A stretch of DNA of 58,715 nucleotides. It comes from an uncultured Thermoanaerobaculia bacterium (GTDB lineage Bacteria; Acidobacteriota; Thermoanaerobaculia; Gp7-AA8). This document shows positions 11,606 through 53,676 of this stretch, piece by piece; the first letter of the stretch is position 1, and each line of letters begins with the position of its first letter. Below the pieces are notes generated by a model that was not told where the DNA came from, searched no databases, and saw only the letters and a list, made by a program, of their open reading frames with translations. The stretch is from contig CAZYTO010000003.1 of assembly GCA_964650405.1 (NCBI GenBank), positions 1 to 58,715 of the forward strand, in the 5' to 3' direction. The position numbers and the translations under genes are program-made.

Positions 11606-12910
11606 TCAGTGCGCCACACCCCTCCGCTTCGACGGCGGCGGCGCGTACACGTAGCCGCGGACGGCGGTCACGGTCGTGCTACCAGCCGTCACGGCCACGT
11701 CGACGGCACCCGCGGCATGCGCGGGAACAGTGGCCTTCAGGGTCACGGCGTCGATGACCTGGACGTTCGTCGCGGCGACGCCGCCCACGGTCACGCTGGG
11801 GGTGGAACCGAACCCGGAGCCGATGATCTCGATGACGTTGCCGCCCGCGGGCGGGCCGGCAGAGGGCTCGATTCCCGCGATGGCCAGGACCGGCGCGGTG
11901 TAGGTGAAGCTGTTGAACGTGGCGTTCTGCGAATCGGGATTCGTCACGACTACGGCCGCATTGCCCGCGGCATGCGCGGGAGCGGTGGCGGTGAGGCTGG
12001 TGCTCGCGCCGAAGGTGACGCCCGTGGCCGGCGTGCCGCCGAAGGTGACCGTGGCTCCGCTTACGAAGTTCGTGCCGTGAATCGTGACGACAGTCCCCCC
12101 TGCCGTGGAGCCGCCGGCCGGATCGAGACTGGTGATCGCCGGCGTCGGGTTCTGGTAGGTGAAACCGTTGGCCAGAACGCCGCTCTGGGCATCGGGATTC
12201 GTCACGGCCACGGCCACCTGGCCGGCGCCATGCGCCGGCGTTTTGCAGGAGATGGCCGTACCGGAGGTGACCTGGACGTTCGTGGCCGCCGTGCCGCCGA
12301 ACGAGACGGTGGCGTTGTTGGCGAAGCCCGAACCGTTCACGGTCACGCTCGTACCCCCTGCCACCGGTCCAGTGGAGGGGTTGACGCTGCTCACCGACGG
12401 CGGCGGCTGCGTCACGGGAGTCACGGTCATCGTGCCGACCATGTTGGAGTGCGCGTTGCTGCACGACGGCACGCTGCAGACGTAGGAAAAGGTCCCCGCC
12501 GTCGTGGCCACGAACGAGATCGAGATCGAGTTCCCCCGGTTACAGTTCCGGGCGCTCTCGATGTACGTATCCATGAGGATGCCATGGCTGGTGGAGAAGT
12601 CGTTCGACGGCACGGTGAAGGTGATATTGACCGTGTCGCCCTGGTTCACGGTGAAGGGTGACGGCGAGACGGTGAACTGCGCCGAATTCGTGCTCACCGC
12701 GTGGGCGGTGATGGTGAACGACACCGACGCCGTCGGCTCGACCGTCGCCGGCGGCTGGGGAATGACATCTCCGTGTTTCGACAACGAAACCGCCAGTGCC
12801 CGGTAGTCGTCTTCGGTCATCGGGTGATGCCCGGCGTGCTGGGCGTAGAGGGCGGACGGGAGGAAGAGAAAGGCGAGAAGCGCGAGAACCGAGACTACCC
12901 GTTTGAGCAT
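11606..12910 (-). CDS. Secreted cupredoxin-domain protein with three IPT/TIG repeats
   Basis: Signal peptide; VNQGDTVNITF...SHGI...GTFSYVCSVPSCSNAHSNMVGTMTV; three P-x-GG-T-x-V-x-I-x-G-x-F IPT/TIG units; C-terminus KRRGVAH. Confidence 0.85.
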   Translation of the reverse strand: MLKRVVSVLALLAFLFLPSALYAQHAGHHPMTEDDYRALAVSLSKHGDVIPQPPATVEPTASVSFTITAHAVSTNSAQFTVSPSPFTVNQGDTVNITFTVPSNDFSTSHGILMDTYIESARNCNRGNSISISFVATTAGTFSYVCSVPSCSNAHSNMVGTMTVTPVTQPPPSVSSVNPSTGPVAGGTSVTVNGSGFANNATVSFGGTAATNVQVTSGTAISCKTPAHGAGQVAVAVTNPDAQSGVLANGFTYQNPTPAITSLDPAGGSTAGGTVVTIHGTNFVSGATVTFGGTPATGVTFGASTSLTATAPAHAAGNAAVVVTNPDSQNATFNSFTYTAPVLAIAGIEPSAGPPAGGNVIEIIGSGFGSTPSVTVGGVAATNVQVIDAVTLKATVPAHAAGAVDVAVTAGSTTVTAVRGYVYAPPPSKRRGVAH

Positions 12911-12941
12911 GGTGAACAGACGTCCCCGAGTTTTCTGTCGT

Positions 12942-14192
12942 TTACAAGCGGATGATGATGTTGCGGCGGTACAACAGCCAGAGGATTGCCAGCCACAGCG
13001 TCACGAAACTGAGAGCCCACAAAAGCGAAGCGAAGCGGTCCGAAAGATATCCAAGCTGGAACCAGGAAAATGTGAGCTGGTGCACAGAAATCAGCTTGCC
13101 GCCCACATTTACCTTCCACAGCGAATCGATGATGCGGGCCATCAGCCCCGAGCCGACGAATGCCACCAGCGGATTGACGCCGTAGATGACGAACGGCTTC
13201 GTCCAGCCGCGGTATCCCTCCACGTCGATGAGCCAGAGGCATGTGGCCAGGCAGACGCAGGCGAACCCGGCCGTAAAGACGACGTAGCTGCTCGTCCAGA
13301 GATTCTTGTTGATGGGAAAGACCCAGCTCCAGAACGAGCCGAGGACCATGCCCAGGCAGCCCACGCCGTAGAGGCCGGCAATGCGCTCGATGAGCGACCG
13401 CTTCTTGTCGCCGATCCAGCGCCCCGCGAAGACGCCGAGCATGGCCGTCGCCACGGCCGGGACCGTCGACAGCGGCCCCTCCGGGTCGTAGGTCTTGCTC
13501 GACGCCCAGATGTGGTTCGTGCCGAGGATGAGCCGGTCGGACCAGGCCGCGAGCGTGGCGCCCGGCTGGTTGAGCACATAGAAACCGATGGTCCCCGTGC
13601 CCGGCACAGGCACCAGCGTCATCACCACCCAGTAGCCGATGAGGATGGCCACGACGACGGCGATCTGCGTGCGCCGCGAGGTGCGCAGGGTCAGCAGTGC
13701 CGCGCAGACGTAGGCGATGCCGATGCGCTGCAGCACGCCGAGGTAGCGGAGGTGCTGGATGCGGTAGACGACGCGGTCGAGGAATGTCGGTGCCGCGATG
13801 TCGCCCACCTTTGCGCCCCACCAGAAGAAGGGGAACCAGGCCAGCAGCAGACCGGCCAGGAAGATGAGCAGCCCGCGCCGGAGGATCTTGCGCACCAGCG
13901 CGCCCGTGTCCGCCCCCTGCGCCGCGCGCGTACCGAGGGAGAGGTGCGTAGTGATGCCGACGATGAAGAGGAAGAAGGGAAAGATGAGGTCCGTGGGCGT
14001 CCAGCCGTTCCACTCCGCGTGCTCGAGCGGCGGGTAGATCGCGCTCCAGCTCCCCGGATTGTTGACCAGCAGCATCCCGGCGATGGTCATGCCGCGGAAG
14101 ACGTCGAGCGCCAGGAGCCGCTCCTTCACGGGAGCCAGCGGCGGCTCAACGGCAGGTTCGGTGAGCGGAGGAGCGTCGAGAACGGCGGTCAC
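12942..14192 (-). CDS. Heparan-alpha-glucosaminide N-acetyltransferase (HGSNAT/DUF5009)-like membrane acyltransferase
   Basis: RLLALDVFRG, LVNNPG, HAEWNGWTPTDLIFPFFLFIVG, GVLQRIG, DPEGPLST, PINKNLWTSSY. Confidence 0.9.
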   Translation of the reverse strand: MTAVLDAPPLTEPAVEPPLAPVKERLLALDVFRGMTIAGMLLVNNPGSWSAIYPPLEHAEWNGWTPTDLIFPFFLFIVGITTHLSLGTRAAQGADTGALVRKILRRGLLIFLAGLLLAWFPFFWWGAKVGDIAAPTFLDRVVYRIQHLRYLGVLQRIGIAYVCAALLTLRTSRRTQIAVVVAILIGYWVVMTLVPVPGTGTIGFYVLNQPGATLAAWSDRLILGTNHIWASSKTYDPEGPLSTVPAVATAMLGVFAGRWIGDKKRSLIERIAGLYGVGCLGMVLGSFWSWVFPINKNLWTSSYVVFTAGFACVCLATCLWLIDVEGYRGWTKPFVIYGVNPLVAFVGSGLMARIIDSLWKVNVGGKLISVHQLTFSWFQLGYLSDRFASLLWALSFVTLWLAILWLLYRRNIIIRL

Positions 14193-14201
14193 GCCGCAAG
14201 T

Positions 14202-14319
14202 ATGAAGGATGACGGGATGAAGGATGAAGGGATGTGCCGGTTCGGACGGCCATCATGGGCAGGAAGCGTGGAAGATGATCACGCGCCGGTTCCTCCTTCG
14301 CCCTTCCTCCTTCGCCCTT
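14202..14319. repeat. Family D heptamer hairpin (degenerate)
   Basis: atgaaggatgacgggatgaaggatgaaggg ... tcctccttcgcccttcctccttcgccctt. Confidence 0.8.
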
Positions 14320-14328
14320 TTTCTCGAG

Positions 14329-15138
14329 CTACCCCACCAGCTTCCGATACTCTTTCAGGTGCTGCACGGCGCTGGCCGTCTCGCCGCGCTTCTCGTACAG
14401 GCCGGCCAGGTTATAGTGAGCGTCCGCATTGTCGGGGTCGAGGGCCAGGGCACGGGCGTAGGCCTCGATGGCTTCGCGCACGCGGCCGAGGTCTTCCAGG
14501 GCCACGCCGAGATTGAAGGCGGCCGTGTCATGGGCCGGATCGGCGGCGAGGGCGGCGCGGTAGTGCTTCTCCGCCGCGGCGGGCGCGCCTTCCTCGTGCA
14601 GGAGGCGCCCGAGGTTCACGTGGGCGTCGGCATGCCGCGGGTCGAGAACGAGGGCCCGCTCGTAGGCGGCCTTCCCCTCCTCCGGCGACGACAGTTCCAG
14701 GTCGCACCCCAGTTCGTACCACCCCTCGGCATCGAGGTCGTCGCTCTTCCTGCCATGGAGGATAGGGATGGTCTGCTCGGCGATGATCTCGGCGACCGGG
14801 AAGTCGAACAGCTCCTGCCCCGACTCCGGGTTCCATACCGTCGTGCCGTCGCGCACGACGATGCGGTCGCCGTCCGTGGCGATGCGGATGCCGGCCAGCG
14901 AGCGCCCCGGCGGCAACTGCTCGCGCAGCTTCTCCAGCACGCGCTGCACCTTCCGCTGCGGGACGTCGGCGGCGATCAATTCGCTGGCCGTGCGGAGCAC
15001 GACGAGGTCGCGGAAGCCGAATTGCAGCTCGCCGCGCGGCCCACGCTCCGGAGAGAGGAATCCCTTCGCGGTGTACGACCGAATCTGCCCGGGTGTGATC
15101 CCGAGCATCGCCGCGACGTCGCGGACCGTGAAGGCCAT
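14329..15138 (-). CDS. MerR-type HTH plus TPR protein
   Basis: FTVRDVAAMLGITPGQIRSYTAKGFLSP HTH; C-terminal TPRs (AHVNLGRLL, AAFNLGVAL, AHYNLAGLY). Confidence 0.8.
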   Translation of the reverse strand: MAFTVRDVAAMLGITPGQIRSYTAKGFLSPERGPRGELQFGFRDLVVLRTASELIAADVPQRKVQRVLEKLREQLPPGRSLAGIRIATDGDRIVVRDGTTVWNPESGQELFDFPVAEIIAEQTIPILHGRKSDDLDAEGWYELGCDLELSSPEEGKAAYERALVLDPRHADAHVNLGRLLHEEGAPAAAEKHYRAALAADPAHDTAAFNLGVALEDLGRVREAIEAYARALALDPDNADAHYNLAGLYEKRGETASAVQHLKEYRKLVG

Positions 15139-15148
15139 CGCCGGAAGT

Positions 15149-15931
15149 CTACCCCCGGCTCTCCTGCAGCTTGCGGACGATGAAGGTCACGACGCGGCGG
15201 GGGGAGACGCGGACGGACTGGGCGAGGAGCTTGTTCTTCAGGCCGGCCACAACGACGCGGCGGCCGCGGAGCATGGCCCGGTAGCCGGTGCGGGCCACGC
15301 TCGCGGAGGAGGCGGGGCTGGCCAGGCGGAAGAGGCGGGTGGCGCCGGCGCCCGCGGCGGCGGCGAAGCCGGTCTCGGTCGGGCCGGGGCAGAGCGCCGT
15401 CACGGTCACGCCCGTGTCGCGCAGCTCGTCGGCGATGGCCTCGGAGAACGACAGGACGTACGCCTTCGTGGCGTAGTAGACGGCCATGAGCGGTCCGGGC
15501 TGGAAGGCGGCGGTGGAGGCGACGTTGAGGATGCGGCCCCGCTTGCGCGCGACCATGCCGGGGAGGAGGAGCTTGGTGAGCTGAGTGAGGGCGACGCAGT
15601 TGACCTGGATCATCTCCAGCTCGGCACGGCCGCCGGTGGCCACGAAGGCGCCGGCCACGCCGAAACCAGCGTTGTTCACCAGGGCGTCGACGGTCAGGCC
15701 TCGGTCCTCCAGGACGCTGGCGATCTCGCCGGCCGCATCGGGCCGGGCCAGGTCGACGGCGATCACCTCGGCGGAGATGCCGTGGTCTTTGGCCAGGGAA
15801 TCGGCGAGCTGGCGCAGCTTCCCCTCGCTGCGCGCGACCAGCACGAGGTCCCAGCCGTCACGCGCGAAGAGGCGCGCCAGCTCGAGACCGATGCCGCCCG
15901 AGGCGCCGGTGATGAGGGCTGTCTGTTTCAT
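15149..15931 (-). CDS. Short-chain dehydrogenase/reductase (DltE/YqjQ-like)
   Basis: TGASGGIG, LVNNAGFG, NVASTAA, YYATK. Confidence 0.92.
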   Translation of the reverse strand: MKQTALITGASGGIGLELARLFARDGWDLVLVARSEGKLRQLADSLAKDHGISAEVIAVDLARPDAAGEIASVLEDRGLTVDALVNNAGFGVAGAFVATGGRAELEMIQVNCVALTQLTKLLLPGMVARKRGRILNVASTAAFQPGPLMAVYYATKAYVLSFSEAIADELRDTGVTVTALCPGPTETGFAAAAGAGATRLFRLASPASSASVARTGYRAMLRGRRVVVAGLKNKLLAQSVRVSPRRVVTFIVRKLQESRG

Positions 15932-15940
15932 GATGGGCTT

Positions 15941-15950
15941 ACGTTACCAT
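15941..15950. promoter_or_regulatory. Overlapping divergent -10 boxes (TACCAT on +, TAACGT on -)
   Basis: 8 nt before the S9 peptidase ATG and 9 nt before the SDR ATG, in a 27-nt intergenic gap. Confidence 0.55.
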
Positions 15951-15958
15951 CACGCTCC

Positions 15959-18061
15959 ATGTACGCCATCCGTCTCGCCGCTCTCACCCTTCTCGCGACG
16001 GTCGTCTCGGCGCAGCCGTCGAAGATCCCCATCCCGGCCAAGAAGGCGCCGACGCACGAAGCGCTCTGGCTGATGAAGCGCGTCGGCAGTCCCGTGCCCA
16101 GCCCCGACGGGAAGTGGGTGATCGTTCCGGTAACGGAGCCGGCCTACGACGAGAAGGACCAGTCGTCCGATCTCTGGCTCATGCCCAGCGACGGCAGCGC
16201 CGCCCCGCGGCAGATCACCCACAACAAGCCGGCGGAAAGCGACGTGACGTGGTCACCCGACAGCCGGGCCATCGCCTTCTCGTCGAAGCGCGAGGGCGAC
16301 GAGGTGGCGCAGGTCTACATCCTCGACATCGCCGGCGGCGGCGAGGCACGGCGGGTGACGAGCCTCTCCACCGGGGCCCGCGGCCCGCAGTTCCGCCCCG
16401 ACGGCGGCGCCATCGCCGTGCAGTCGACCGTCTACCCCGGCGCGGTGGACGACGAGGCGAACAAGAAGATCGCCAAAGAGCGGAAGGAGCGGAAATACAA
16501 GGTCCGCACCTACGACACGTTCCCCATCCACCAGTGGGACCGCTGGCTGGACGACCAGCAGACGCACATCATCCTCATCACGCTCGACACGCCCAACGTC
16601 CCGCCGAACGACTTCCTCGCCCCGACGAAACTCGCCGCGACGCCCGGCTTCGGCGGCCACTTCGGCGAGGGCTCGCGCGAGGAGCTCGAATCGGCCTGGA
16701 CGCCCGACGGCCGGGCCATGGTGTTCTCCGCGACGACCGCCAGGAACACCAGCGCTTACGCGGAAGTGCCGTACGACCTCTACGTCGCCGACGGCAACGG
16801 CGAGCCGAAGGTCCTCACGGACGGCAAAGGACGCTACGAAGGGCCGCGCTTCTCGCCGGACGGCAAGACGCTCTTCGCCACGTACGAGCCAAACGAGAAG
16901 AAGCAGTACCACAACAACCGGATCGTCCGTTTCGACTGGCCGTCGATGGCGAACCGGAAGGTGGTGACGGACGCGCCCTTCGACCGCTCCGTGGCCTCGT
17001 GGACCATCACGCCCGACAGTGCGCTGATCTTCTTCAGCGCCGAGGATGCGGGGCAGGAGAAGATCTACGCGGTGCCGGCGGCGGGGGGCGAAGTGAAGCT
17101 CAGCTTCGCGCCGGAGCGCGGCGTCTTCACCGGGCTGCGCATCCCGGAGAAAGCGGCGGCGCCCATCCTCATCGGGCAGTGGAGCAGCTCCATCAACCCC
17201 ACTGAGGTCGTGCGCATCGATCCCGTGCGGCAGAAGATGACGAACCTCACCGAGTTCGACGTGGCCGCGGCGCAGCGCATCGACTGGCTGCCGCCGGAGC
17301 ACTTCTCCTTCACCAGCAAGCGCGGGAAGAAGATCCACAACATGATCGTGAAGCCGGCCGGCTTCGACGAGACGAAGAAGTACCCGCTCTTCGTCCTCAT
17401 CCACGGCGGCGCGGCCAGCCAGTGGCGTGACGCCATCTCGCTCCGCTGGAACTATCACCTGCTGGCCAAGCCGGGCTACGTCCTCCTCCTCACGGACTAC
17501 ACCGGCTCGACCGGCAACGGGGAGAAGTTCGCCCAGGACATCGAGCTCGATCCCCTGAAAGGCCCGGGCGAGGAGCTGAACGAGGCGGCCGACGAGGCCA
17601 TCAAGCGCTTCGCCTTCATCGACGGCACGCGCCAGGCGGCCGGCGGCGCGAGCTATGGCGGCCACCTCGCCTACTGGCTGGAGGCAACGACCACCCGCTA
17701 CAAGTGCATCATCGCCCACGCCGGCGAGTTCAACCTCGGCTCGCAGTGGGCCACGAGCGACGGGATCTACCACCGCGAGCTGATGAACGGCGGTCCGCCC
17801 TGGGAAGGGGGCAAGGTCTGGAAGGAGCAGAGCCCCATCACCTACGCGGCGAAGATGAAGACGCCCATCCTCCTCTCGGTCGGGGAGCACGACTTCCGCG
17901 TGCCGATGAACAACACCATCGAAGCCTGGTCGGTCCTCCAGCACCAGCGCGTGCCCTCACGCCTGCTGGTCTGGCCCGACGAGAACCACTGGATCCTCAA
18001 CGGCGAGAACAGCCGGCACTTCTACGAGGAGGTGTGGGCGTGGCTGGGGAAGTGGCTGTGA
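15959..18061 (+). CDS. Secreted S9 (prolyl oligopeptidase family) peptidase with PD40 propeller
   Basis: Signal peptide MYAIRLAALTLLATVVSA; SPDG repeats; IHGG; GASYGG nucleophile; GEHDFRVP; DENHWI. The ORF-track extension to 14768 is antisense shadow. Confidence 0.93.
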   Translation: MYAIRLAALTLLATVVSAQPSKIPIPAKKAPTHEALWLMKRVGSPVPSPDGKWVIVPVTEPAYDEKDQSSDLWLMPSDGSAAPRQITHNKPAESDVTWSPDSRAIAFSSKREGDEVAQVYILDIAGGGEARRVTSLSTGARGPQFRPDGGAIAVQSTVYPGAVDDEANKKIAKERKERKYKVRTYDTFPIHQWDRWLDDQQTHIILITLDTPNVPPNDFLAPTKLAATPGFGGHFGEGSREELESAWTPDGRAMVFSATTARNTSAYAEVPYDLYVADGNGEPKVLTDGKGRYEGPRFSPDGKTLFATYEPNEKKQYHNNRIVRFDWPSMANRKVVTDAPFDRSVASWTITPDSALIFFSAEDAGQEKIYAVPAAGGEVKLSFAPERGVFTGLRIPEKAAAPILIGQWSSSINPTEVVRIDPVRQKMTNLTEFDVAAAQRIDWLPPEHFSFTSKRGKKIHNMIVKPAGFDETKKYPLFVLIHGGAASQWRDAISLRWNYHLLAKPGYVLLLTDYTGSTGNGEKFAQDIELDPLKGPGEELNEAADEAIKRFAFIDGTRQAAGGASYGGHLAYWLEATTTRYKCIIAHAGEFNLGSQWATSDGIYHRELMNGGPPWEGGKVWKEQSPITYAAKMKTPILLSVGEHDFRVPMNNTIEAWSVLQHQRVPSRLLVWPDENHWILNGENSRHFYEEVWAWLGKWL

Positions 18062-18065
18062 AACG

Positions 18066-18147
18066 GAGTGCTGAGTGCCGAGTGCTGAGTGCCGAGTCTT
18101 TGAGCATGAGTCCTGAGGGCATGAGGCATGAGTAACGAGGCATGAGT
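18066..18147. repeat. Tandem family B then family C heptamer arms (one-sided)
   Basis: gagtgctgagtgccgagtgctgagtgccgagt then gagcatgagtcctgagggcatgaggcatgagt...catgagt. Confidence 0.85.
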
Positions 18148-18252
18148 GGCCTTTAGGCTGTGCCTCGGGCGATTACAACCTCGATCGCGGGATGTCCTCA
18201 CACCCTCTGGGTGCCGGGCGCCGAGGCTCTTGTTCCTGATCTCGAATTCCTG

Positions 18253-18483
18253 ATGAGCGACTACCCAACTTCCAAGGACGTCGTAGCGTTTCTCAACGAG
18301 CGCTTTGCCGCGCGCGGGCTGCCGTACCGGCTCGAGCACATCGCCGTGCTGCCGTACGTGAATCCGATGTGGATGGCGAACTGGGAGGCGCCGCAGCTCG
18401 CGGACGCGCCGGAGAAAGATGTGATCGAAGAAGAGATCCGCGAGGCGCGCTGGCGCTACCCGCAGGTGCTGGACGAGTTTTGA
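18253..18483 (+). CDS. Small hypothetical protein (76 aa)
   Basis: MSDYPTSKDVVAFLNERF...RWRYPQVLDEF; host-like GC3-rich codons and globular composition. Confidence 0.65.
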   Translation: MSDYPTSKDVVAFLNERFAARGLPYRLEHIAVLPYVNPMWMANWEAPQLADAPEKDVIEEEIREARWRYPQVLDEF

Positions 18484-18491
18484 TCATCCAC

Positions 18492-18520
18492 AAAAAAAGA
18501 GCCGGCCCCGAAGGGCCGGC
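18492..18520 (-). terminator. Rho-independent terminator of the CsgG-like gene
   Basis: gccggccc-cgaa-gggccggc stem-loop with an A7 tract (U7 on the minus strand), 26 nt after the stop. Confidence 0.85.
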
Positions 18521-18546
18521 CCAAGCTACCCCGGCAACCGGTACGG

Positions 18547-19248
18547 CTATTCGATCTTGATCGAGCTCTTGGTCTTGTCGCGGCGGGCCTTTTCCTTTGC
18601 CGCGTACTCCTTGAGGCAGTTGTCCTTGTCCACCATCGAGCAGGCCCGGTAGTCGCTGATCTCTGCCATGACGCCGAGGATGGCCTTGCCGGTCGGCGTC
18701 TTTTCGTAGCCGCCCAGCGATCCGCCGAAGCCGCCGCGATAGACGCTCACACCGAGGCCGTTGCTCGTGGAGCGGGCCTCCACCGTGCGGGTGAACTCGA
18801 CTTCGCCGGTGGTGGTATCGACGACGCGGAGGTCGACGGCGATGTAGGCCTCCTCGTGCTTACCGCCCACGCCGATGCCGTGGAAGCTGATGCCGCCGCC
18901 GCCACCCGAGACGTTGTTCTGGAACGAACTGACGGTGGCGATGACGACGTACTGGGCTCCGGTCAGCTTGCCGAGCTTCGCCCCGGTCGACTTCGACACG
19001 CGCCCCGAGGCGGCCAGGTCCTGCTCATCGAGGATCGAGCCGAGGTTGTGCCGTTCGACCATCTTGAACTTTTCCGTTCCGGCAAGTTCATTGGTCAGCA
19101 TGCTGGCCAGATCGGTGCCGGTGCTTCCGCTCCACCAGCCGGCGCTGGTCTCATTCCGGAATTCTGCGACGGCCAGCACCGGCTTGGCGGCGAAGGCCGA
19201 GGAAACGAAAAACAACAACGACGTAGCGAGCAAAACAATCTTGCGCAT
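18547..19248 (-). CDS. CsgG/HfaB family protein
   Basis: Signal peptide; LAVAEF, DLASMLTNELAGTEKFKMVER..L..IL.EQDL..SG, GKLTGAQY, AVDLRVVDTTTGEV. Confidence 0.85.
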   Translation of the reverse strand: MRKIVLLATSLLFFVSSAFAAKPVLAVAEFRNETSAGWWSGSTGTDLASMLTNELAGTEKFKMVERHNLGSILDEQDLAASGRVSKSTGAKLGKLTGAQYVVIATVSSFQNNVSGGGGGISFHGIGVGGKHEEAYIAVDLRVVDTTTGEVEFTRTVEARSTSNGLGVSVYRGGFGGSLGGYEKTPTGKAILGVMAEISDYRACSMVDKDNCLKEYAAKEKARRDKTKSSIKIE

Positions 19249-19423
19249 TCTTTCCCCCGAGTTTGTGTCCGCCAATCTTAGTTCGAAACGGCCTTTCTGC
19301 TGTGACCGGTCTCACGGGCCCCGCCTGAAAAAGGAAACATCCGCCGGCCGCCGGAGGTCGTAGAATCGCTGCCTGGGTTCCCGCCCGGACAAAAATAGAA
19401 CCGCTGCAGAGAGAGAGCTCAGC

Positions 19424-22400
19424 ATGCGTCCATTCCGCGTTGCCGCGATTTTTACCGTGTCGATCCTCCTTTTGCTCGGCGTCGCCTTCCGCGAGGCCCT
19501 GGCGGTCTGTATCCCGCAGATCTACAACGTCACCTCGTCCGCGCCTCCGCCGATAGGGTTCTGGACCGATACGAGCGGAGCGGTCTGGAACCCGCCGGGA
19601 GGCTTCCCCGGCTGCGCTCCCGGCGATACGGCCGCGGACCCGAACCCCACCCCGACGACGCTCATCATCAACAGCGCCATTCCGAATCCCATCACCGGCC
19701 TCATTCTGTCCTGCCCGGGATGTGCGATCGACATCCAATCCGGCGGAAGCCTTACGCTGGCGGGTTCCGCCTCCCTCAGCAGTTCCTCGACGATCATCGT
19801 GGAGCCGGGCGGCCAGCTCACCATCGCCAACGGCGGGACGCTCACGTTCAATCCGGGAACATCTCTCTCGGTAAACGGCGGGCTCGTCGACGTGCAGACC
19901 GGCGGCGCTCTCGTGCAAAACGGAGCGAGCACAGTCACGAACGGCGGCACTCTGCGGCTCAGCGGCGGCACCTGGACCGTCGGCGCGTTGTTTACCGTGC
20001 AGAGCACCGGAACCATCGAGCTCGACGGCGGCACGGTCAACGGCGGCAGCACCGTCAACAACAACGGAACCATCTTGCAGAACAGCGGCACGACCAGCTT
20101 TTCGCCGGTGCTCAACAACTCCTCCGGCGCCCATCTCAACATCAACGGCGGAACGCTCTCGCTTGGCGGCGGCGGAACCGGCGGCGCACCCGTTGTCATC
20201 ACGGCAGGCGCCACGCTCGACTTTCCCAGCAGCACCTACACTCTCACGACGAACGGCACCGTCTCCGGCGCAGGCGCACTCCAGGTCAGCGGCGGCACAT
20301 TGTCCATCGGCGGCGTGACCTCGCCGTCGAACTTCACCATGACCGGCGGTACTCTCACCGGCGCCGGATTCATGACCGTGACGGGGACGTTCGCCTGGAG
20401 CGGCGGCACGCTCACCGGCAACGGCGGCACGCAGATCGCCGGTACCGGCTCGGGGAATTTCAGCGGCGCGAACGGCTCGATGATTCTCGACGGTCGCCTC
20501 TTCGACGACTACGGCTCCGTCGACTACAACGCGACGACGAACCCGCTGAATCTCATCAACGGCGGAGCCCTGGCCGTCTACGGTACGTTCAACTTCTCCA
20601 ACGATGGGAACATCACCGGCGACACGCTCTCCTCACTGACCATCAGCCCCAACGGCGTGCTGTTCAAGAACGGCGGCAGCGGAACATCGAAGATCTCGCC
20701 GAAGACCTACAACAACGCCACGGTATGGGTGTTCAGCGGCACGCTGGAGTTCGCCGGCGACGGCACGCACAACGGCAGCTTCGAGGCCTTCGACAACACA
20801 ACGCTCGTCTTCAGCGCAACCTCCACGACGCTGGGCGTCAATTCCTCCATCAGCAGCTCGCCGCTCGGCACGGTCGCGTTCCGCGGCGGCAGCGTGGCGG
20901 GCAGCGGCAACTTCCAGGTCGACGGTCTGACGACCCTGACCGGCTCGCCGTCGGTCAGCCTGGCCAACGGCGGCTACACGCACGACCTGACCATGGACAG
21001 CGGCTTCCTCACGCTCGCCAATCCCTTCGATCTCAAACACAGCGGGACGTGGTCGGGCGGAAAGATCACCCTGAACACGCCGGGGACGTTCCTCGTCGAC
21101 GCCGGCGCCACGCTCACCAACGACGGCGCGGCAGGGCCGACTTTCCTCTCCACCGGCGAGCTGCGGAACAACGGCACGTTTGTCTACAAGCCCGCCGCGA
21201 ATCCGCTGGAGCTCGACAACAACGCCGACATCGACAACGAAGGCCTCTTCGACCTGCAGACGGACACGGCCATCAAGAACGGCGTCGTCATCATCGGCTT
21301 CGCCCGCAGGGAGGCGCAGGGGGCAGGCTCCGCCCCGGCCAGGCGCGGCACGCGGCGGCCGGTGCACAACTGGGCGTCGGGGCCCTTCATCTACAACGGC
21401 GGCACGATGCAGAAGTCGGCCGGCAGCGGCACCCAGGACATCCAGCCGGCACTCGAGAACGACGCCACGGTCCTGGCCCTGAGCGGCGCGATGCAGTTCG
21501 ACAACGGCTACATGCAGAGCGCCGGCAAGACGACGCTCGGTCCGGGCGGCATCAAGATGAACGGCGCGCCGATGACGCTCACCGGCGGCACGCTCGACGG
21601 CAGCGGCACGGTGACCGGCGACGTCGCGAACACGTCCGGCACCGTCGCGCCGGGCGGCAACGGCACCATCGGCACGATCAACGTCACCGGCAATTACACG
21701 CAGGGCGCGGCGGCGTTCCTCGACTTCGACATTTCGGCAGTCGGGACGAACGACGTGCTGGCCGCCGGCAACGCCGTCACGCTCGACGGGCAGCTCGCCG
21801 TCACGCTCCTGGGCGGTTTCCAGCCCGCGAACGGCAACGTCTTCATCCCGATGACGTTCGCGTCGCGGACCGGCGACTTCGCCGCGACGAGCTTCCCGAC
21901 CTGGGCCAGCGGCCACGGCTCGTTCAGCAAGAGCTACACCCCGACGGAGCTGGATCTCAGCGCCACCGTCACACCGCCGTCGGCCGATCTCGCGGCGAGC
22001 ACCAGCGGTCCCGCCGGCGTCAACACCGGCGCGCCGCTCAGCTACACCGTCACCATCACCAACAACGGCCCGGATTCGTCGAGCGGGACGATCTCCGTCG
22101 CCGATACGCTCCCGGCCGGCGTCACCGGCGCGAGCGGAGCCGGCACGGGTTGGTCGTGCGGCGCACCCTCCGGCGGCGTCATCACCTGCACCACTACCGC
22201 GGTGGTCGCGCAGTCGGGCACCTTCCCGACGCTGACGTTCTCCATGACCGCTCCGTCCAGCGACGGCAGCGTGTCCGACAGCGCCACCGTCTCGTCGTCG
22301 TTCGATTCGGTGCCCGGCAACAACACGTCGTCCGCAAGCACCAACGTCCTCGTGGCCCAGGCTGACCTCTCCATCACCAAGAGCGGTCCGCCCTCGGTGA

Positions 22401-25400
22401 ACGCCGGGCAGAACATCGTCTACACCATCGTCGTGACCAACAACGGACCGCAGCCGGCGACGGGCGTGGTCGTCAACGACTCCACGCCTTCAGGCCTGAC
22501 GTTCGTTTCGAACAGCGGTGGCTGCACGACGGCATTCCCCTGCGCGCTCGGCTCGCTCACCGCCGGCCAGATCGTGACGATCACGTCGACGTTCAGCATT
22601 CCGCCGGCCTACGCCAACCCGAGCATCACCAATACCGCCTCCGTCAGCGGCACGACGTCCGACCCGAGCCTCGCCAATAACAGCGCCATGGCCACGACCA
22701 CCGTCACCGGCGTGACCGCGGCGGACGTGAGCGTCTTCAAGCACGCGCCGGGCGCCGGAAATCCGGGCGGCACGGTCGATTTCGCCATCGACGTCTTCAA
22801 CAACGGCCCGTCGGCCGCGTCGAACGTGCTCGTGACTGATCCCACGCCGGCCGGCCTGCAGTTCGTGTCGAATACCGGCGCCTGCACGACGCCGTTCCCC
22901 TGCACCATTTCGTCGATCGCGCCGGGCGCGCTGCAGGTCGTCATCGCCCGCTACAAGGTCACGGCCGGCGTTGGCACGCCGATCACGAACACGGTCACGG
23001 TCTCCAGCGCCACGAGCGATCCGAATCCGGCGAACAACACGAGCCAGGCGTCGTTCACAGTCAGCGCGCCGCCTCCCTGCCCGGCCGGCAAGCCGGTGCT
23101 CGCGACTCCCGCAGAAGGCGCGGCCAGCGCCTCACCCGCGTCGTTGTCATGGAGCGGCGTGGCCAACGCGCTCACGTACACCGTCAACATCACGGGCGCG
23201 ACCTCGGCCACGTTCACCACCGACCAGCTCTCGGCTTTGCAGGTCCTGCCGAACGGCAGCTACACATGGACCGTGGCTGCGAACTTCGCATCGCCCTGCG
23301 CATCGCAGACGTCGGCCGGCGGCCACTTCAGCGTCTGCTCTGTCCCCGACGCGCCCGTGGCGAGCGTCGTCGGAGAGTCCACGACCGGCCAGACCTACGC
23401 CGTGAGCTGGACGCCCTCCGGCGACAGCGGCAGTTACGAGCTGCAGGAGGCGGGCGACTTCAACTTCACCAATCCCGCGAGCCTCATGGTCAGCGGCACG
23501 TCACGCTCCTTTACGAAGACGGCCACTGCGGCTACGCCGTTCTTCTACCGCGTGCGCGCCATTGCCTGCGGCAGCACGCCGTTCTCGCATCCCATCGGGG
23601 TCGTCGTCGTGCCCATTCCCGGGCCGCACGATCCGCGCTTCAACGTCACCGTGCCGGCCGGCAGCACGACTCCGGTCGTCTTCCAGGTCTTCATCCCCGG
23701 CCTGCCGGGCGGGCCGGCGGCGTTCCTGGCCACGGCCGACAAACCGTGGATCGGCGTCCTTCCGCAGGCCGGCATCGTGCCGCAGGACGGGACGACGCTC
23801 ACCATCTCGCTCGATCCGAGCGATCTCGTGAACGGTACATGGACCGGCACGATCCTCGTCGTCTACACGACGCCGGGCTCGGGCAAGATCGAGAGCGACG
23901 GCTCGACCACGTCGTCGATCCCCGTATCCATCAGCCTGGTCACACCGGTCACGCCGGGCAGGCAGCCGGCGCCGACGGCCAATACGCTGATCATCCCCAC
24001 GGTCGGCCACCTCTTCGGCGTCGATTCGCAGTGGCAGAGCGACATCCGCGTGGCGAACCTCACCACGGCCCGGGCCAACTACCTCGTCACCTTCACCTCG
24101 GGCGACCCGAACACGCCCGTCAAGCAGACCACGCTGGCGATCGACGCCGGCGCCACCACGGCCCTCGACGACATCGTGCGCAACTGGTTCGGCGTCGGCT
24201 CGCTCAGCGACTCGGCCAACGGCCTGCTCTACATCCAGGCCACGGACAGCACCGGCCACATCCTCTCCGCCCGGGCGGCGAACGACGTGAGCGTCAACAA
24301 GATCACGGCCGTCTCCAGCCGCACGTACAACACGCAGGCGTCAGCGAGCTCGCCGGGAACGCTCGGACAGTTCGTTCCGGCCACGGCCTTCGCGAGCTTC
24401 ATCGGCAGGGCCGGTGGCGCGGCGGCCGCATCGCTGCAGAGCATCCAGCAGATCGCGCAGAACGACGCCTACCGCACCAACGTCGGCCTCGTGGAGGCAT
24501 CCGGCAAGTCCGCAGCCGTGGCCCTCAGCGTCTTCGACGGCGGCGGCAGCAAGCTGCTTTCCCTCCCCGTGACGCTCAATGGCGGCGAACAGCGGCAGCT
24601 CAACGCCCTGCTGGCCCAGAACAACATCAGCCTGACCAACGGCCGCGTGCAGGTGGAGGTCACCGGCGGCGACGGCCGAGTGCAGGCCTACGCCTCGGTG
24701 ATCGACGCCCGAAGCGGCGACCCCTTCCTCATCTCCGGCTCGTCCATCGGCGCGGCGGCCAGCAACTTCGTCGTTCCCGCCGTCGGCGACCTGAACCTCG
24801 GCACGGCAAGCTGGCGCAGCGATGTACGCATCTTCAACGCCGGCCTCTCGCCCCAGACGGCCTCGCTCACCTACTTCCCGAACGGCGATCCGTCGCACAG
24901 TACGTCCCAGACGGTCTCGCCCAACCCCGGCACGATGACGTCCATGGACAGCGTCGTCCCGTCCCTCTTCGGCCTCTCCAACCCCTGCGCCGCCCTGCCC
25001 GTGCCGACACCGCCGAACACCCAGCTCGTCTTCACTCCGCGCACGTTCGACCAGACCGCCAACGGGACGCTCGGGCAGTTCCTCCCCGCCGTGACCAACA
25101 CCGATGCCGTCGGCCGCAACGATCGTTCCCTGCAGATCCTGCAGGCCGAGGAGTCGGTGCGCTACCGCACGAACGTCGGGATCGCGGAGGTGACCGGCAA
25201 GCCGGCCACCGTCGAGATCGCGGTCTTCCTCCCCGACTCCAAGGTCGTCCCGCACGTGACTCTGCAGCTCGGCGCCAACGAGTCCCGCCAGCTCGACGTC
25301 CTCGGCGGCCTCGGCATCGGCGCGGCCTACAACGCCCGCCTCGCCATCCGCGTCACCGACGGCGACGGAAGGGTCACGGCGTACGGCTCGGTGGTGGACA

Positions 25401-25438
25401 TGACCACTCAGGCACCGACGTACATTCCGGCGCAGTAG
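19424..25438 (+). CDS. Giant secreted adhesin-like protein (2004 aa): beta-helix-like passenger, 3x DUF11, FN3-like, BACON-like, duplicated C-terminal module
   Basis: Signal peptide; G/T/N-rich GGTL repeats; ADLSITKSGP...YTIVVTNNGP DUF11 units; two copies of W.SD.R..N...RT[YF]....GTLGQF.PA...YRTNVG..E..G...AY.SV.D. Confidence 0.85.
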   Translation: MRPFRVAAIFTVSILLLLGVAFREALAVCIPQIYNVTSSAPPPIGFWTDTSGAVWNPPGGFPGCAPGDTAADPNPTPTTLIINSAIPNPITGLILSCPGCAIDIQSGGSLTLAGSASLSSSSTIIVEPGGQLTIANGGTLTFNPGTSLSVNGGLVDVQTGGALVQNGASTVTNGGTLRLSGGTWTVGALFTVQSTGTIELDGGTVNGGSTVNNNGTILQNSGTTSFSPVLNNSSGAHLNINGGTLSLGGGGTGGAPVVITAGATLDFPSSTYTLTTNGTVSGAGALQVSGGTLSIGGVTSPSNFTMTGGTLTGAGFMTVTGTFAWSGGTLTGNGGTQIAGTGSGNFSGANGSMILDGRLFDDYGSVDYNATTNPLNLINGGALAVYGTFNFSNDGNITGDTLSSLTISPNGVLFKNGGSGTSKISPKTYNNATVWVFSGTLEFAGDGTHNGSFEAFDNTTLVFSATSTTLGVNSSISSSPLGTVAFRGGSVAGSGNFQVDGLTTLTGSPSVSLANGGYTHDLTMDSGFLTLANPFDLKHSGTWSGGKITLNTPGTFLVDAGATLTNDGAAGPTFLSTGELRNNGTFVYKPAANPLELDNNADIDNEGLFDLQTDTAIKNGVVIIGFARREAQGAGSAPARRGTRRPVHNWASGPFIYNGGTMQKSAGSGTQDIQPALENDATVLALSGAMQFDNGYMQSAGKTTLGPGGIKMNGAPMTLTGGTLDGSGTVTGDVANTSGTVAPGGNGTIGTINVTGNYTQGAAAFLDFDISAVGTNDVLAAGNAVTLDGQLAVTLLGGFQPANGNVFIPMTFASRTGDFAATSFPTWASGHGSFSKSYTPTELDLSATVTPPSADLAASTSGPAGVNTGAPLSYTVTITNNGPDSSSGTISVADTLPAGVTGASGAGTGWSCGAPSGGVITCTTTAVVAQSGTFPTLTFSMTAPSSDGSVSDSATVSSSFDSVPGNNTSSASTNVLVAQADLSITKSGPPSVNAGQNIVYTIVVTNNGPQPATGVVVNDSTPSGLTFVSNSGGCTTAFPCALGSLTAGQIVTITSTFSIPPAYANPSITNTASVSGTTSDPSLANNSAMATTTVTGVTAADVSVFKHAPGAGNPGGTVDFAIDVFNNGPSAASNVLVTDPTPAGLQFVSNTGACTTPFPCTISSIAPGALQVVIARYKVTAGVGTPITNTVTVSSATSDPNPANNTSQASFTVSAPPPCPAGKPVLATPAEGAASASPASLSWSGVANALTYTVNITGATSATFTTDQLSALQVLPNGSYTWTVAANFASPCASQTSAGGHFSVCSVPDAPVASVVGESTTGQTYAVSWTPSGDSGSYELQEAGDFNFTNPASLMVSGTSRSFTKTATAATPFFYRVRAIACGSTPFSHPIGVVVVPIPGPHDPRFNVTVPAGSTTPVVFQVFIPGLPGGPAAFLATADKPWIGVLPQAGIVPQDGTTLTISLDPSDLVNGTWTGTILVVYTTPGSGKIESDGSTTSSIPVSISLVTPVTPGRQPAPTANTLIIPTVGHLFGVDSQWQSDIRVANLTTARANYLVTFTSGDPNTPVKQTTLAIDAGATTALDDIVRNWFGVGSLSDSANGLLYIQATDSTGHILSARAANDVSVNKITAVSSRTYNTQASASSPGTLGQFVPATAFASFIGRAGGAAAASLQSIQQIAQNDAYRTNVGLVEASGKSAAVALSVFDGGGSKLLSLPVTLNGGEQRQLNALLAQNNISLTNGRVQVEVTGGDGRVQAYASVIDARSGDPFLISGSSIGAAASNFVVPAVGDLNLGTASWRSDVRIFNAGLSPQTASLTYFPNGDPSHSTSQTVSPNPGTMTSMDSVVPSLFGLSNPCAALPVPTPPNTQLVFTPRTFDQTANGTLGQFLPAVTNTDAVGRNDRSLQILQAEESVRYRTNVGIAEVTGKPATVEIAVFLPDSKVVPHVTLQLGANESRQLDVLGGLGIGAAYNARLAIRVTDGDGRVTAYGSVVDMTTQAPTYIPAQ

Positions 25439-25516
25439 TCGCTGATTCGCTTAGTCGCTTATTCGCTTAGTCGCTTATTCGCTGTTCGCTGTTCGGTGTT
25501 CGCCGTTCGCTGTTCG
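25436..25516. repeat. Family F arm (TTCGCTTA/GTCGCTTA octamers then TTCGCTG heptamers)
   Basis: tagtcgctgattcgcttagtcgcttattcgcttagtcgcttattcgctgttcgctgttcggtgttcgccgttcgctgttcg; inverse of 27754-27892. Confidence 0.92.
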
Positions 25517-25550
25517 TGACTCTGCCAACGCTCTACGCAATAATGCCGGC

Positions 25551-27713
25551 ATGCGACCGGTCCTCGCACTCCTCGTTCTTGTTGTCACCGGTGTCCTCGC
25601 CGCGGACGAGCATCCCGTGGCATCGCCTGCCGCCACAATTCCGCCGGGCACGCAACGCGCGGCGGCCGTTGCCACCGACGGTTCCGGGTTCCTGACCATC
25701 TGGAACGACCATCGCAGTTTCGGCAGCGATTTCCCTCGGATCTGGGCGGTCCAGACGAATGCCTCCGGCAAGCGTTCTTCCCCGATCCTCCTCCAGGATC
25801 AAACCATAGGCGCGACACCGGAGTGGCCCTGGGATCCGTATGACGACCAGATGACTGTCGTCTGGACCGGTGCGGTCTATCTCGCCGTCTGGTACGACTG
25901 GCCCGCAAGGAAGACCCATACGATGCGGCTCGACCGCACCGGCCATCAGCTCGACGCCGTCCCACGCGAGATCGCTACGAGGGGGCAGATCGTGGGAGCG
26001 GCCTCGGACGGCACGCGGACGATGGTGGCCGTCCTGCCAAACCTGAAGCCCGCGCAGCTCCTGTTCTTCGATGCGAACGGAGAGCCCGCACGCGATCCGC
26101 TCGACATGGCTTATGGCACCGTCCCCATTGCCTTCGCTTCGAACGGTCACGGCTTTCTGATGATCTACTCCATGATTACCACTGGTACGTCGAGCCAGTC
26201 GTACATGGGCCCCATCTCCGCCGACGGAGTGCTTGGAAGCAGCGTTCCCTTCGACTTCGGCCGCCTCTACTGCATCACAACGGACGGAACCGATTATCTG
26301 GTCGTCTACCGTGATCACGTGGGCTTCGTTGCGTACTATCGATACGACGCCACCGGAAGACTCGTCGGCGGTCGGCACGGCGTCGATGCGTCGACATCAG
26401 GTGCGAGCGCGACCCCCTATCTCAGCGGCTGGCTGGTGCAGACGGCCAGTCCCGCAGGCAGCCGTCTGCGTCATCTCGATCATGACGGGGTTTACCTCGA
26501 GGACGTACCGATGGCTGCCCCCGACGCCGGCGGCGTCCTGGCAACAAACGGAAGCCAGGTGCTTTACGCCCACGGACACCTGACGACGAGTGTGCTGTAC
26601 CAACAGATCCTGGGCAACGGCCCTGACGAGTTGCTGCAACCGGGACCGCCGACGCAAACGCAACCTCGCCTGACAGGCGGAGGTAAGGGCTATGCCGCGC
26701 TGTGGGACGAGGCGCGGGAGACGAAGGAATTGCGCGCGGCGCGTGTCGACGCGCACGGAGCGCCACTTGACGGCGAGGGCCTGGTCGTGACGCGGAGCTC
26801 GCACTACGACGGCTCGACGGCGATCGCCTTCGACGGCGCGAACTACATCGCCGCCTGGGGCGACAACAGCGCCGGCCAATGCAGCATCCACCTTGCGCGC
26901 ATCACACCCGAGGGAACACTCCCGGACGGCCTCAACGGCCATCTCGTCTACTACGCCTGCGTACCCCGCCTCGCGCTCGGTTCGGGCCCCGATCGCGTTC
27001 TGCTCGTCTGGACTCAGTTCGACGGAAATGCGTACGGAAGTTCCTGGGCATTGGTCATGGACCGGAACCAGATCCCGATCTCCAATCCGGTGCGATTGCC
27101 GGAGGCCTACAGAGACGCTGAAGTCGCGGTGGGATGGAACGGCACGAATTGGCTGGTCGCCTGGACCAGCTCGACCTTCGTCTATTACAACGGGTACCAC
27201 TACACCTATTACATCTACACCGCGCGGATCGCGGCGGATGGCTCGTTGGTCGGCCAGGCCGCTCGCGTCATTGCGCAATCATTCGATAACGAGAATGCGC
27301 TCTCCGTCGGTTCGAACGGTGCCGATTTCGTCGTCGCCTGGCAATCGTGGGACGCAACCGTCCTCAATCCTCCCTACTCGCTTCATGCCCTCAGGGTCTC
27401 CCCCGATGGGACGCCCGGCGCCTCCGTGAGTCTCGGCAGCGGCACAAGGCCGTCTGCCTCATGGACAGGCACTGATTATGTCGTCGGATTCCAGGACGGC
27501 GATGCTCTTTACACGACAACGCTCGGTCAGCCGTCCAAACGCCAACTCCTCGCCACGGCCGGTGGTTCAAACTCGACGGTCATGCTCGCCTTCGCTGCTT
27601 CCGGTTCACTGGCCAACCTCTACCTCCGCAACGCATGGGAGTGGCCCTACCTCACCACACTCACCGCCTTCCTCAACGCAAGTGCCGGACCCCACCGGCG
27701 CGCCGCACACTGA
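25551..27713 (+). CDS. Secreted hypothetical protein with about 12 'A.A.DG..FLVVW.D' repeats (probable double beta-propeller)
   Basis: Signal peptide; repeats such as VATDGSGFLTIWND, ITTDGTDYLVVYRD, AFDGANYIAAWGD, VGWNGTNWLVAWTS, VGSNGADFVVAWQS; more A/T-ending codons than its neighbours; C-terminus HRRAAH. Confidence 0.75.
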   Translation: MRPVLALLVLVVTGVLAADEHPVASPAATIPPGTQRAAAVATDGSGFLTIWNDHRSFGSDFPRIWAVQTNASGKRSSPILLQDQTIGATPEWPWDPYDDQMTVVWTGAVYLAVWYDWPARKTHTMRLDRTGHQLDAVPREIATRGQIVGAASDGTRTMVAVLPNLKPAQLLFFDANGEPARDPLDMAYGTVPIAFASNGHGFLMIYSMITTGTSSQSYMGPISADGVLGSSVPFDFGRLYCITTDGTDYLVVYRDHVGFVAYYRYDATGRLVGGRHGVDASTSGASATPYLSGWLVQTASPAGSRLRHLDHDGVYLEDVPMAAPDAGGVLATNGSQVLYAHGHLTTSVLYQQILGNGPDELLQPGPPTQTQPRLTGGGKGYAALWDEARETKELRAARVDAHGAPLDGEGLVVTRSSHYDGSTAIAFDGANYIAAWGDNSAGQCSIHLARITPEGTLPDGLNGHLVYYACVPRLALGSGPDRVLLVWTQFDGNAYGSSWALVMDRNQIPISNPVRLPEAYRDAEVAVGWNGTNWLVAWTSSTFVYYNGYHYTYYIYTARIAADGSLVGQAARVIAQSFDNENALSVGSNGADFVVAWQSWDATVLNPPYSLHALRVSPDGTPGASVSLGSGTRPSASWTGTDYVVGFQDGDALYTTTLGQPSKRQLLATAGGSNSTVMLAFAASGSLANLYLRNAWEWPYLTTLTAFLNASAGPHRRAAH

Positions 27714-27753
27714 GCACGCGAAACGCTGTGCACCGCGAATCACGCAGCACGAA

Positions 27754-27892
27754 AAGCGAATAGCGGATAAGCGACTTCGCCGATAAGCGAACAGCGAATA
27801 AGCGAATAAGCGATTAAGCGATTAAGCGATTAAGCGAATAAGCGAATAAGCGAATAAGCGAATAAGCGAATAAGCGAATAGGCGAATAAGCG
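27754..27892. repeat. Family F arm: tandem AGCGAATA/AGCGATTA octamer array
   Basis: About 14 near-perfect units ending directly at the arnT-like stop codon. Confidence 0.95.

Positions 27893-50454: not shown

Positions 50455-53676
<3,222 letters not shown>

Follow-up and report, generated by a model that had tools for sequence, protein, structure and literature searches.

What is the role of a short basic peptide at the extreme C-terminus of exported proteins that are otherwise unrelated? This question is raised by two genes on contig CAZYTO010000003.1 of an uncultured Thermoanaerobaculia bacterium. The entire contig (58,715 bp, 66% G+C) was analysed and is called the window here. Gene A (family 1) encodes a cupredoxin-IPT/TIG protein, gene B (family 2) encodes a beta-propeller protein, and both products end in a basic tail. 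A preliminary description of this DNA had proposed that the tail may be a lineage-specific export, anchoring or processing tag. We found that the tag exists, that it is under selection at the peptide level, that it occurs solely on proteins with a signal peptide, which come from many unrelated families in one lineage, and that it stands where homologues elsewhere have known surface-sorting signals. The comparative evidence supports a candidate tag, which may serve any of the three tasks. In Thermoanaerobaculia, the tail may be a lineage-specific C-terminal tag for sorting or recognition, P-[KR]-[RH]-R-[AGS]-[VA]-[KR]-H-COOH, which would be read by a dedicated factor. On the basis of the sequence comparisons described below, we give this reading a probability of roughly 55%.

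Basic tails on two exported proteins

The product of gene A ends in ...YAPPPSKRRGVAH directly before the stop codon (a longer C-terminal stretch is APPPSKRRGVAH), and that of gene B ends in ...SAGPHRRAAH. In the gene A product, Pfam detected three TIG domains, and there were weak matches to the NosZ C-terminal domain. The protein also matched NCBIfam NF058597, the 'choice-of-anchor Z repeating domain', with 93.9 bits (cut-off 30). NCBI uses the name 'choice-of-anchor' for domains that occur with alternative C-terminal anchors: family 1 belongs to this group through NF058597, and family 2 shows the same behaviour empirically, without such a model. The cupredoxin domain contains the invariant residues H109, C145, C150, H154 and M157, which form a CuA-like C-x4-C-x3-H-x2-M pattern. 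The gene B product itself did not match any Pfam or NCBIfam model; the TIGR04275 beta-propeller repeat was matched by 34 of the 52 aligned family-2 members (window protein counted).

The AlphaFold2 (AF2) model of the gene A product has a predicted local distance difference test score (pLDDT) of 87.9. Its final beta-strand stops at residue 422; the tail is coil (pLDDT about 48). The model of the gene B product (pLDDT 86.1) consists of two beta-propellers, for which Foldseek retrieved double propellers; the last beta-strand ends at residue 711 and the tail is again coil (pLDDT about 55). There is no C-terminal helix in either model. Thus, as had been described, the two tails stand on unrelated secreted proteins, which both have a signal peptide and lack a C-terminal transmembrane (TM) helix. 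The sorting-signal models of Pfam and NCBIfam matched neither the two proteins nor their isolated tails, in agreement with the earlier statement that the tail matches none of several known sorting signals. The span of 11606-27713 given in the preliminary description is not one locus, since 12.6 kb of unrelated genes separate genes A and B. The intervening genes are of ordinary kinds; their products are a NagX-like acetyltransferase, a MerR-TPR regulator, an SDR protein, an S9 peptidase, a CsgG-like lipoprotein and a 2004-aa DUF11 protein.

When the regular expression suggested in the preliminary description was applied to the window's 306 open reading frames (ORFs) that are 60 aa or longer, exactly two matches were obtained, genes A and B. 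Approximately 0.002 matches would be expected by chance among the 39 likely genes of the window. Because this expression had been chosen post hoc, the weight of the argument rests on the independent tests of conservation and spread.

Conservation of the tail within families

The homologues were gathered with the protein body and not with the tail, so that their C-termini provide an unbiased test of conservation. The consensus of the tail is P(-8) [KR](-7) [RH](-6) R(-5) [AGS](-4) [VA](-3) [KR](-2) H(-1), where -1 is the last residue, and it follows immediately after the last beta-strand. The Arg at -5 is invariant. Position -4 is a small residue, -3 is Val or Ala and -2 is usually Lys or Arg; -1 is His (sometimes Arg, Lys or Pro). 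One or two further basic residues are present at -6 and -7, and a Pro is present at -8 or -9. The motif is therefore not RR-x2-3-H, as had been suggested, but a pattern around the invariant Arg with a small residue at -4 and Val or Ala at -3.

In family 1, the C-terminus of all 33 protein-database orthologues is P-P-[SP]-K-[RKH]-R-[AGS]-[VA]-[KRA]-H. In their alignment, R430 (-5) is invariant and K428 (-7) and H434 (-1) are at least 90% conserved; the tail was likewise present at every family-1 genome locus with a complete 3' end (22/22). In family 2, the nine closest relatives (18-49% identity to the window protein) all carry the tail, with the ends PPHRRAATR, RRGRAVRK, PRGRAVRK, PRGRAVRH, ARGRAAR, VRGRVVRR, KSRGVRH and GRRRAVR. 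The HRRAAH of the window is an atypical copy, which is one residue shorter than that of its nearest relative (HRRAATR). Family 3 is a 437-aa HExxH protein, which was first encountered in the DNA-pattern scan described below. Among its full-length homologues (50-95% identity), 102 of 110 end in P-P-R-R-R-[AS]-[VA]-[RK]-H. The information content is highest at -7 to -5 and at -1 and falls in the variable linker just upstream. The tail is thus kept at the extreme C-terminus across orthologues. The preference for particular residues at fixed distances from the C-terminus (small at -4, Val or Ala at -3) suggests a protein reader rather than an effect of charge alone.

Spread over unrelated exported proteins of one lineage

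We scanned public metagenome contigs with a DNA pattern for P-R-[RG]-R-A-V-x-H-stop, and at least 120 loci matched. This pattern fixes Arg at -7 and misses the K-R-R-A-V-K-H form that is typical of family 1. Among the 120 matches listed, 17 terminate long, codon-biased ORFs. The remaining 103 are plainly chance matches: open frames of 8-100 codons that show no codon bias, TGG in place of the stop codon, or long frames that have no coding features or run antisense to true genes. From the composition, chance matches were expected to lie at a real gene end approximately 1000-fold less often than in a random frame, and the observed ratio among the matches listed was 17:103. When viral contigs were scanned with the identical pattern as a control, none of nine matches lay at a real gene end.

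The 17 gene ends represent at least 11 families among the matches listed. These are a BNR/Sortilin propeller, family 3, an M10/M12-like peptidase with Ig_7 repeats, an unknown 453-aa protein, a Kelch protein, a Kelch protein with Calx-beta, two kinds of beta-helix protein, a subtilase and two fragments. Genes beside the carriers also encode tailed proteins, namely a BD-FAE esterase (...PKRRRAAGR), an Lcl_C protein (...QRRRAARH) and a 766-aa BNR lipoprotein (...PPSRRRAVR). Tailed tandem paralogues adjoin some carriers as well (PRGRAVRH with PRMRAVRH, and KSRGVRH twice), the tandem pairs being at loci L175, L204 and L023. In total, at least 14 carrier families with differing Pfam content were obtained, and all-against-all BLAST of the carriers gave links only within the same family. 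A signal peptide was recognised, by eye and with a hydropathy heuristic, in all carriers with a complete N-terminus. The automatic heuristic alone was positive for 48% of genes when applied to all ORFs and is too permissive to provide a background rate. Thus, the tail recurs on unrelated signal-peptide proteins, as had been expected.

Among 185,579 species genomes, 24 family-1 loci were found, all in metagenome-assembled genomes (MAGs) labelled Thermoanaerobaculia, Acidobacteriota or Acidobacteria gp7. The named tailed proteins of families 1 and 3 are all from Thermoanaerobaculia. The statement on lineage rests on these named carriers; the metagenome matches and the more distant family-2 carriers come without taxonomy. 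The suggestion in the preliminary description, unverified there, that tails resembling RRRAVRH recur in Thermoanaerobaculia proved to be correct; all named carriers belong to Thermoanaerobaculia or Acidobacteriota. Control loci from other phyla (L026-L072) contained no tails; this control is weak because the GC3-based gene picker (GC3, G+C content at third codon positions) performs poorly on low-GC DNA (220 genes in 716 kb). The window contains two carriers, and the MAG DATHRD01 contains three unrelated carriers in the approximately 39 kb sampled. A rough extrapolation from about 0.5 Mb of Thermoanaerobaculia-type DNA gives a few tens of carriers per genome, which is an estimate and not a count.

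Alternative C-terminal signals in homologues

The ends of more distant homologues were compared in the same way. A T9SS (type IX secretion system) sorting domain of type A was found in 17 of 52 scanned sequences of the family-2 superfamily. More than ten other family-2 sequences end in a Cys motif, a TM segment and an Arg cluster; four of these are named MYXO-CTERM by the Joint Genome Institute, and two to three match MYXO-CTERM models. Among the relatives in the family-2 and family-3 superfamilies that carry the T9SS C-terminal domain (CTD), the few with names belong to candidate division WOR-3 and Eisenbacteria. Remote family-3 relatives have T9SS-like ends, other (Ig-like) domains or nothing at this position. 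The tail therefore occupies the place of the surface-sorting signals of other phyla.

Selection on the peptide and alternative explanations

In a genome of 66% G+C, where out-of-frame ORFs are rich in Arg (16% R), a basic tail could arise by chance; it could also be the by-product of a DNA or RNA element at the 3' end, and intergenic tandem repeats do lie just 3' of some carriers, or it could be a wrongly called C-terminus that hides an ordinary tripartite signal behind a frameshift. Several findings argue against these explanations. For Arg, the carriers use CGG, CGC, CGT, CGA, AGG or AGA, and for His they use CAC or CAT; each of the three stop codons occurs, and the DNA downstream of the carriers is unrelated and not conserved. 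This synonymous variation across carriers shows that selection acts on the peptide. Moreover, more than 150 orthologues terminate at the same place, right after the modelled beta-strand, and the low chance expectation in the window, the ease with which the chance matches of the scan could be told apart as short or non-coding-frame ORFs and the empty viral control point in the same direction. An origin by chance, by artefact or from a nucleic-acid element is thus refuted and can be excluded for practical purposes. The comparison of codons and downstream DNA, together with the AF2 models, also led us to reject other readings, in which the tail would be left over from a T9SS CTD or a tripartite signal, would result from a frameshift or from readthrough of a stop codon, or would reflect a conserved terminator.

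If the tail is a sorting or recognition tag, the following steps may be proposed. The carrier would be exported by the Sec system via its N-terminal signal peptide and would fold in the periplasm. The unstructured basic tail of 7-9 residues would then project from the last beta-strand, and a dedicated protein factor would read it in register to the free C-terminus. This factor would direct a step after Sec export, by which the carrier is most probably moved to the cell surface or kept there. We infer the existence of the receptor and the destination at the outer membrane or cell surface, and the tail may or may not be cleaved. More specifically, the tail could be the address label of an undescribed post-Sec pathway of export or surface display, in which a periplasmic or outer-membrane receptor reads a TM-less tag of about eight residues. 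Such a pathway would do the job that T9SS, exosortase or myxosortase does in other phyla; we propose it tentatively, as a possibility with somewhat less than an even chance.

Several findings weigh against a sorting or recognition tag. No candidate receptor, peptidase or translocon emerged from 23 locus neighbourhoods, in which no gene recurred beside carriers of different families; recurrence was limited to two-component kinases and to synteny within families. The CsgG-like lipoprotein of the window, a rhomboid near L204 and TonB_C with T2SSE near L210 were considered as partners and rejected, because each was seen only once. The lack of a linked partner is expected for a one-to-many system, and the mechanism stays inferred. 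The tail is also absent from the other exported proteins of the window (the 2004-aa DUF11 protein, a DUF4331 protein and the CsgG-like protein). Its register is not absolute: in some tails the last His is missing (RRRAVR, RRRATK) and others are one residue longer (PKRRAVGRR). Moreover, a subclade of family 1 ends in ...R-[AS]-S-K-P or K-S and not in K-H (L010, L012, L014, L019, L024 and L025). Another carrier at L025, where the family-1 gene belongs to this subclade, keeps ...RRRAARH; thus, the terminal His is preferred and not required. The register shifts and this subclade weaken a model in which the carboxylate is strictly read. Finally, a 766-aa BNR/Sortilin protein (L207, 3595-5895; the same as in L206) has a predicted lipoprotein signal peptide (...VLAAC) and ends in PPSRRRAVR. 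Therefore, simple release to the medium is not the sole role of the tag, and the tag is not confined to soluble exported proteins. The register shifts, the change from His to Pro and the lipoprotein carrier argue against a secretion signal in which the carboxylate is strictly read, and they keep two other explanations alive.

One of these is electrostatic retention, in which the polycationic tail would bind anionic polymers of the envelope (phosphates of the lipopolysaccharide core, exopolysaccharide, peptidoglycan or extracellular DNA) without any machinery and would keep the proteins cell-associated. The 4-5 positive charges within 7-8 tail residues, the exposed and unstructured tail in the AF2 models, the tolerance of one-residue register shifts and of replacement of the last His, the lack of a partner gene nearby and the carrier that is already predicted to be lipid-anchored are all consistent with this idea. 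Charge by itself fails, however, to explain why, across at least 14 unrelated families, Arg is invariant at -5, the residue at -4 is small, -3 is Val or Ala, His is preferred at -1 and Pro stands at -8 or -9, and it leaves both the confinement to the extreme C-terminus and one lineage and the crossing of the outer membrane, for which homologues use T9SS or MYXO-CTERM, without explanation. We consider electrostatic retention unlikely. The tail might instead act in processing or stability. As a C-terminal pro-peptide or degron, it would be the site of a periplasmic protease (a dibasic endopeptidase, a carboxypeptidase or a tail-specific protease of the PDZ type) that matures the carrier or times its degradation; as a basic cap, it would shield the C-terminus from such proteases. 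Like the ligands of tail-specific proteases, it lies at the extreme C-terminus in a nearly fixed register; K/R-R-R and R-x-x-[KR] look similar to sites of the dibasic or furin type, and the tail is disordered in the AF2 models. This explanation would require one shared maturation step for enzymes, propellers, adhesin-like proteins and a redox protein that are unrelated to one another. Furthermore, homologues in other phyla exchange the tail for surface-sorting signals and not for pro-peptides, and a protease gene linked to the carriers was not found in the 23 neighbourhoods. A processing or stability signal is accordingly quite improbable, and a sorting or recognition tag read by a dedicated factor remains our preferred reading.

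Other features of the window

The coordinates of the tail-bearing genes and of other features are given in Table 1. The codon bias of gene B is weaker than that of its neighbours: its GC3 is 0.76, compared with 0.85-0.92, and is about 0.6-0.7 in the final 400 nt. Gene B, whose tail is the short variant, may have been acquired recently or may be under relaxed selection. A 718-aa ORF elsewhere in the window also has a GC3 below its surroundings (0.76).

Table 1 Features of the 58,715-bp window (positions are those of the contig)
Feature	Position	Strand	Remarks
Gene A (family 1)	11606..12910	-	434-aa exported CuA-like cupredoxin with three IPT/TIG domains; carries the tail
Gene A, signal peptide MLKRVVSVLALLAFLFLPSALYA	12842..12910	-	predicted Sec-type, cut before Q; N-terminal helix of residues 4-16 in the AF2 model; kept in orthologues
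Gene A, Pro linker and basic tail PPPS-KRRGVAH	11609..11641	-	stop codon 11606-11608
Gene B (family 2)	25551..27713	+	720-aa exported tandem beta-propeller protein; carries the tail
Gene B, signal peptide MRPVLALLVLVVTGVLA	25551..25601	+	predicted Sec-type, cut before A; N-terminal helix of residues 2-16 in the AF2 model
Gene B, basic tail P-HRRAAH	27690..27710	+	stop codon 27711-27713; variant one residue short of the consensus
NagX/HGSNAT-like TM acetyltransferase	12942-14192		
MerR-HTH and TPR regulator	14329-15138		
CsgG-like lipoprotein	18547-19275		
CsgG-family lipoprotein gene and gene for 2004-aa protein	18547-25438		divergent
718-aa ORF	36291-38447	-	
7-8-nt tandem arrays	607-720, 9446-9549, 25436-25516, 27750-27892, 43489-43565, 46559-46610, 50383-50455		intergenic

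In the window and at L016, L023 and L025, the gene immediately upstream of the cupredoxin-TIG gene always encodes a NagX/HGSNAT-like TM acetyltransferase, and a gene for a MerR-HTH and TPR regulator is nearby. The linkage of an exported binuclear-copper (CuA-like) protein on Ig-like stalks to an acetyltransferase has no obvious explanation. Between genes A and B, the CsgG-family lipoprotein gene (PF03783, 173 bits) is divergent to the gene for the 2004-aa signal-peptide protein, which contains three DUF11 repeats and ends in ...TYIPAQ. These two products may form a pair of a dedicated outer-membrane channel and a giant adhesin.

Many intergenic regions of the window contain arrays in which units of 7-8 nt are repeated in tandem. 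For example, CGAATAAG is repeated 18 times directly 3' of gene B, and TAGTCGCT/TTCGCTG lies upstream of it. At the related loci L025, L156 and L184, G-rich arrays (GGGGTGT..., AGCAGGGACGAGGGA) stand right after the stop codons of tail genes. Such arrays look like a genome-wide feature of these organisms.

Comparison with known sorting signals

C-terminal sorting signals have repeatedly led to the discovery of envelope machinery, namely sortase, exosortase, rhombosortase, myxosortase and T9SS. The short signals described so far share one architecture, which consists of a motif, a membrane helix and an Arg cluster. The tail shows the comparative behaviour of a sorting signal, yet it consists of the basic cluster alone. 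The known membrane-embedded enzymes could not act on it, so that a different reader is indicated, and there is a substantial chance, if below one half, that the tag marks a new pathway. Thermoanaerobaculia are an abundant class of Acidobacteriota in soil and sediment with almost no cultured members, and their secretion biology is unstudied. For these bacteria, the tail provides a cheap regular-expression marker of proteins that are exported or stand at the surface (among them peptidases, esterases, propellers, adhesin-like proteins and a CuA-type redox protein) and a handle for phylogenetic profiling toward its partner.

For short sorting signals at the C-terminus, Haft names eight attributes (bioRxiv 10.1101/2023.06.07.544157, section 5). 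Attributes 1, 2, 5, 6, 7 and 8 describe the tail, attribute 3 may describe it in part, and attribute 4 does not describe it. The motif always forms the last 7-9 residues (attribute 1), and several copies occur per genome, as seen in the window, in the DATHRD01 sample and in the tandem pairs (attribute 2). As regards a signature motif (attribute 3), Pro at -8 or -9, Arg at -5 and His at -1 are conserved; these residues are part of the basic cluster and make up no distinct motif before a helix. The hydrophobic TM segment (attribute 4) is absent: the tail begins 1-4 residues after the last beta-strand, and the AF2 models contain no helix there. For the 2-5 basic residues, mostly Arg, of attribute 5, the last seven residues of the tail contain 3-5 Lys, Arg or His. 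Every carrier with a complete N-terminus has a signal peptide (attribute 6). Many pairs of carriers are dissimilar outside the signal, with at least 14 families and BLAST links only inside families (attribute 7). Homologues elsewhere lack the signal or have another one (attribute 8): T9SS or MYXO-CTERM ends in family 2 and varied ends in the family-3 superfamily.

The tripartite signals (LPXTG/sortase, PEP-CTERM/exosortase, GlyGly-CTERM/rhombosortase, MYXO-CTERM/myxosortase and PGF-CTERM/archaeosortase) resemble the tail in their position at the extreme C-terminus, their signal-peptide carriers and their Arg-rich end. They are also alike in having many unrelated carriers in a lineage, several per genome, in their restriction to lineages and in their exchange among homologues. 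In contrast, the tail has neither a membrane-spanning segment nor a separate upstream motif, comprises 7-9 residues and not 20-35, and does not match any hidden Markov model of this class. Because the TM segment is absent, the tail stands outside the tripartite class and could not be cleaved in the usual way by a membrane-embedded enzyme of the sortase type. The T9SS CTD (type A, TIGR04183/PF18962) is likewise a TM-less C-terminal signal of Sec-exported proteins of diderm bacteria, and it stands at the same position in relatives of families 2 and 3 from other lineages. However, it is a folded beta-sandwich of 70-100 residues, whereas the tail is a disordered peptide of eight residues without sequence similarity to it. 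The models TIGR04183, PF18962 and TIGR04131 did not match the two tailed proteins of the window or the tails, and the same models matched their distant homologues. To our knowledge, T9SS occurs in the FCB group (Fibrobacteres, Chlorobi and Bacteroidetes) and not in Acidobacteriota (T9SS genes were not searched for here).

Two other systems combine basic C-termini with the envelope or with export. Braun's lipoprotein (...YRK-COOH), which is cross-linked to peptidoglycan by L,D-transpeptidase, is an exported protein with a short basic C-terminus for envelope attachment. It needs the side chain of the terminal Lys, whereas the tail ends mostly in His and has Arg as often as Lys at -2; moreover, the homologues of the tail carriers are surface or extracellular proteins. 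The substrates of type IV secretion systems (VirB/VirD4) have Arg-rich C-terminal signals, which are also unstructured and positively charged export tails. These substrates are cytoplasmic and lack a signal peptide, whereas all tail carriers have Sec signal peptides.

Tags that involve the free C-terminus, such as -SKL of peroxisomal targeting signal 1 (PTS1), KDEL, PDZ ligands (for example, the YxF of outer-membrane proteins that is recognised by DegS) and the substrates of tail-specific proteases, are very short, have a nearly fixed register and show positional preferences, as the tail does. They differ in that they serve eukaryotic organelles, or stress sensing and proteolysis, and none is known to have this basic form or to label exported bacterial proteins of many kinds. 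Literature searches and the NCBIfam (June 2026) and Pfam libraries gave no description or model of such a tail. As far as these libraries and the literature searched show, the tag is undescribed, and it is most likely a minimal, TM-less C-terminal protein-sorting signal. By analogy, its architecture appears to be nearer to PTS1, KDEL and PDZ ligands than to the tripartite signals.

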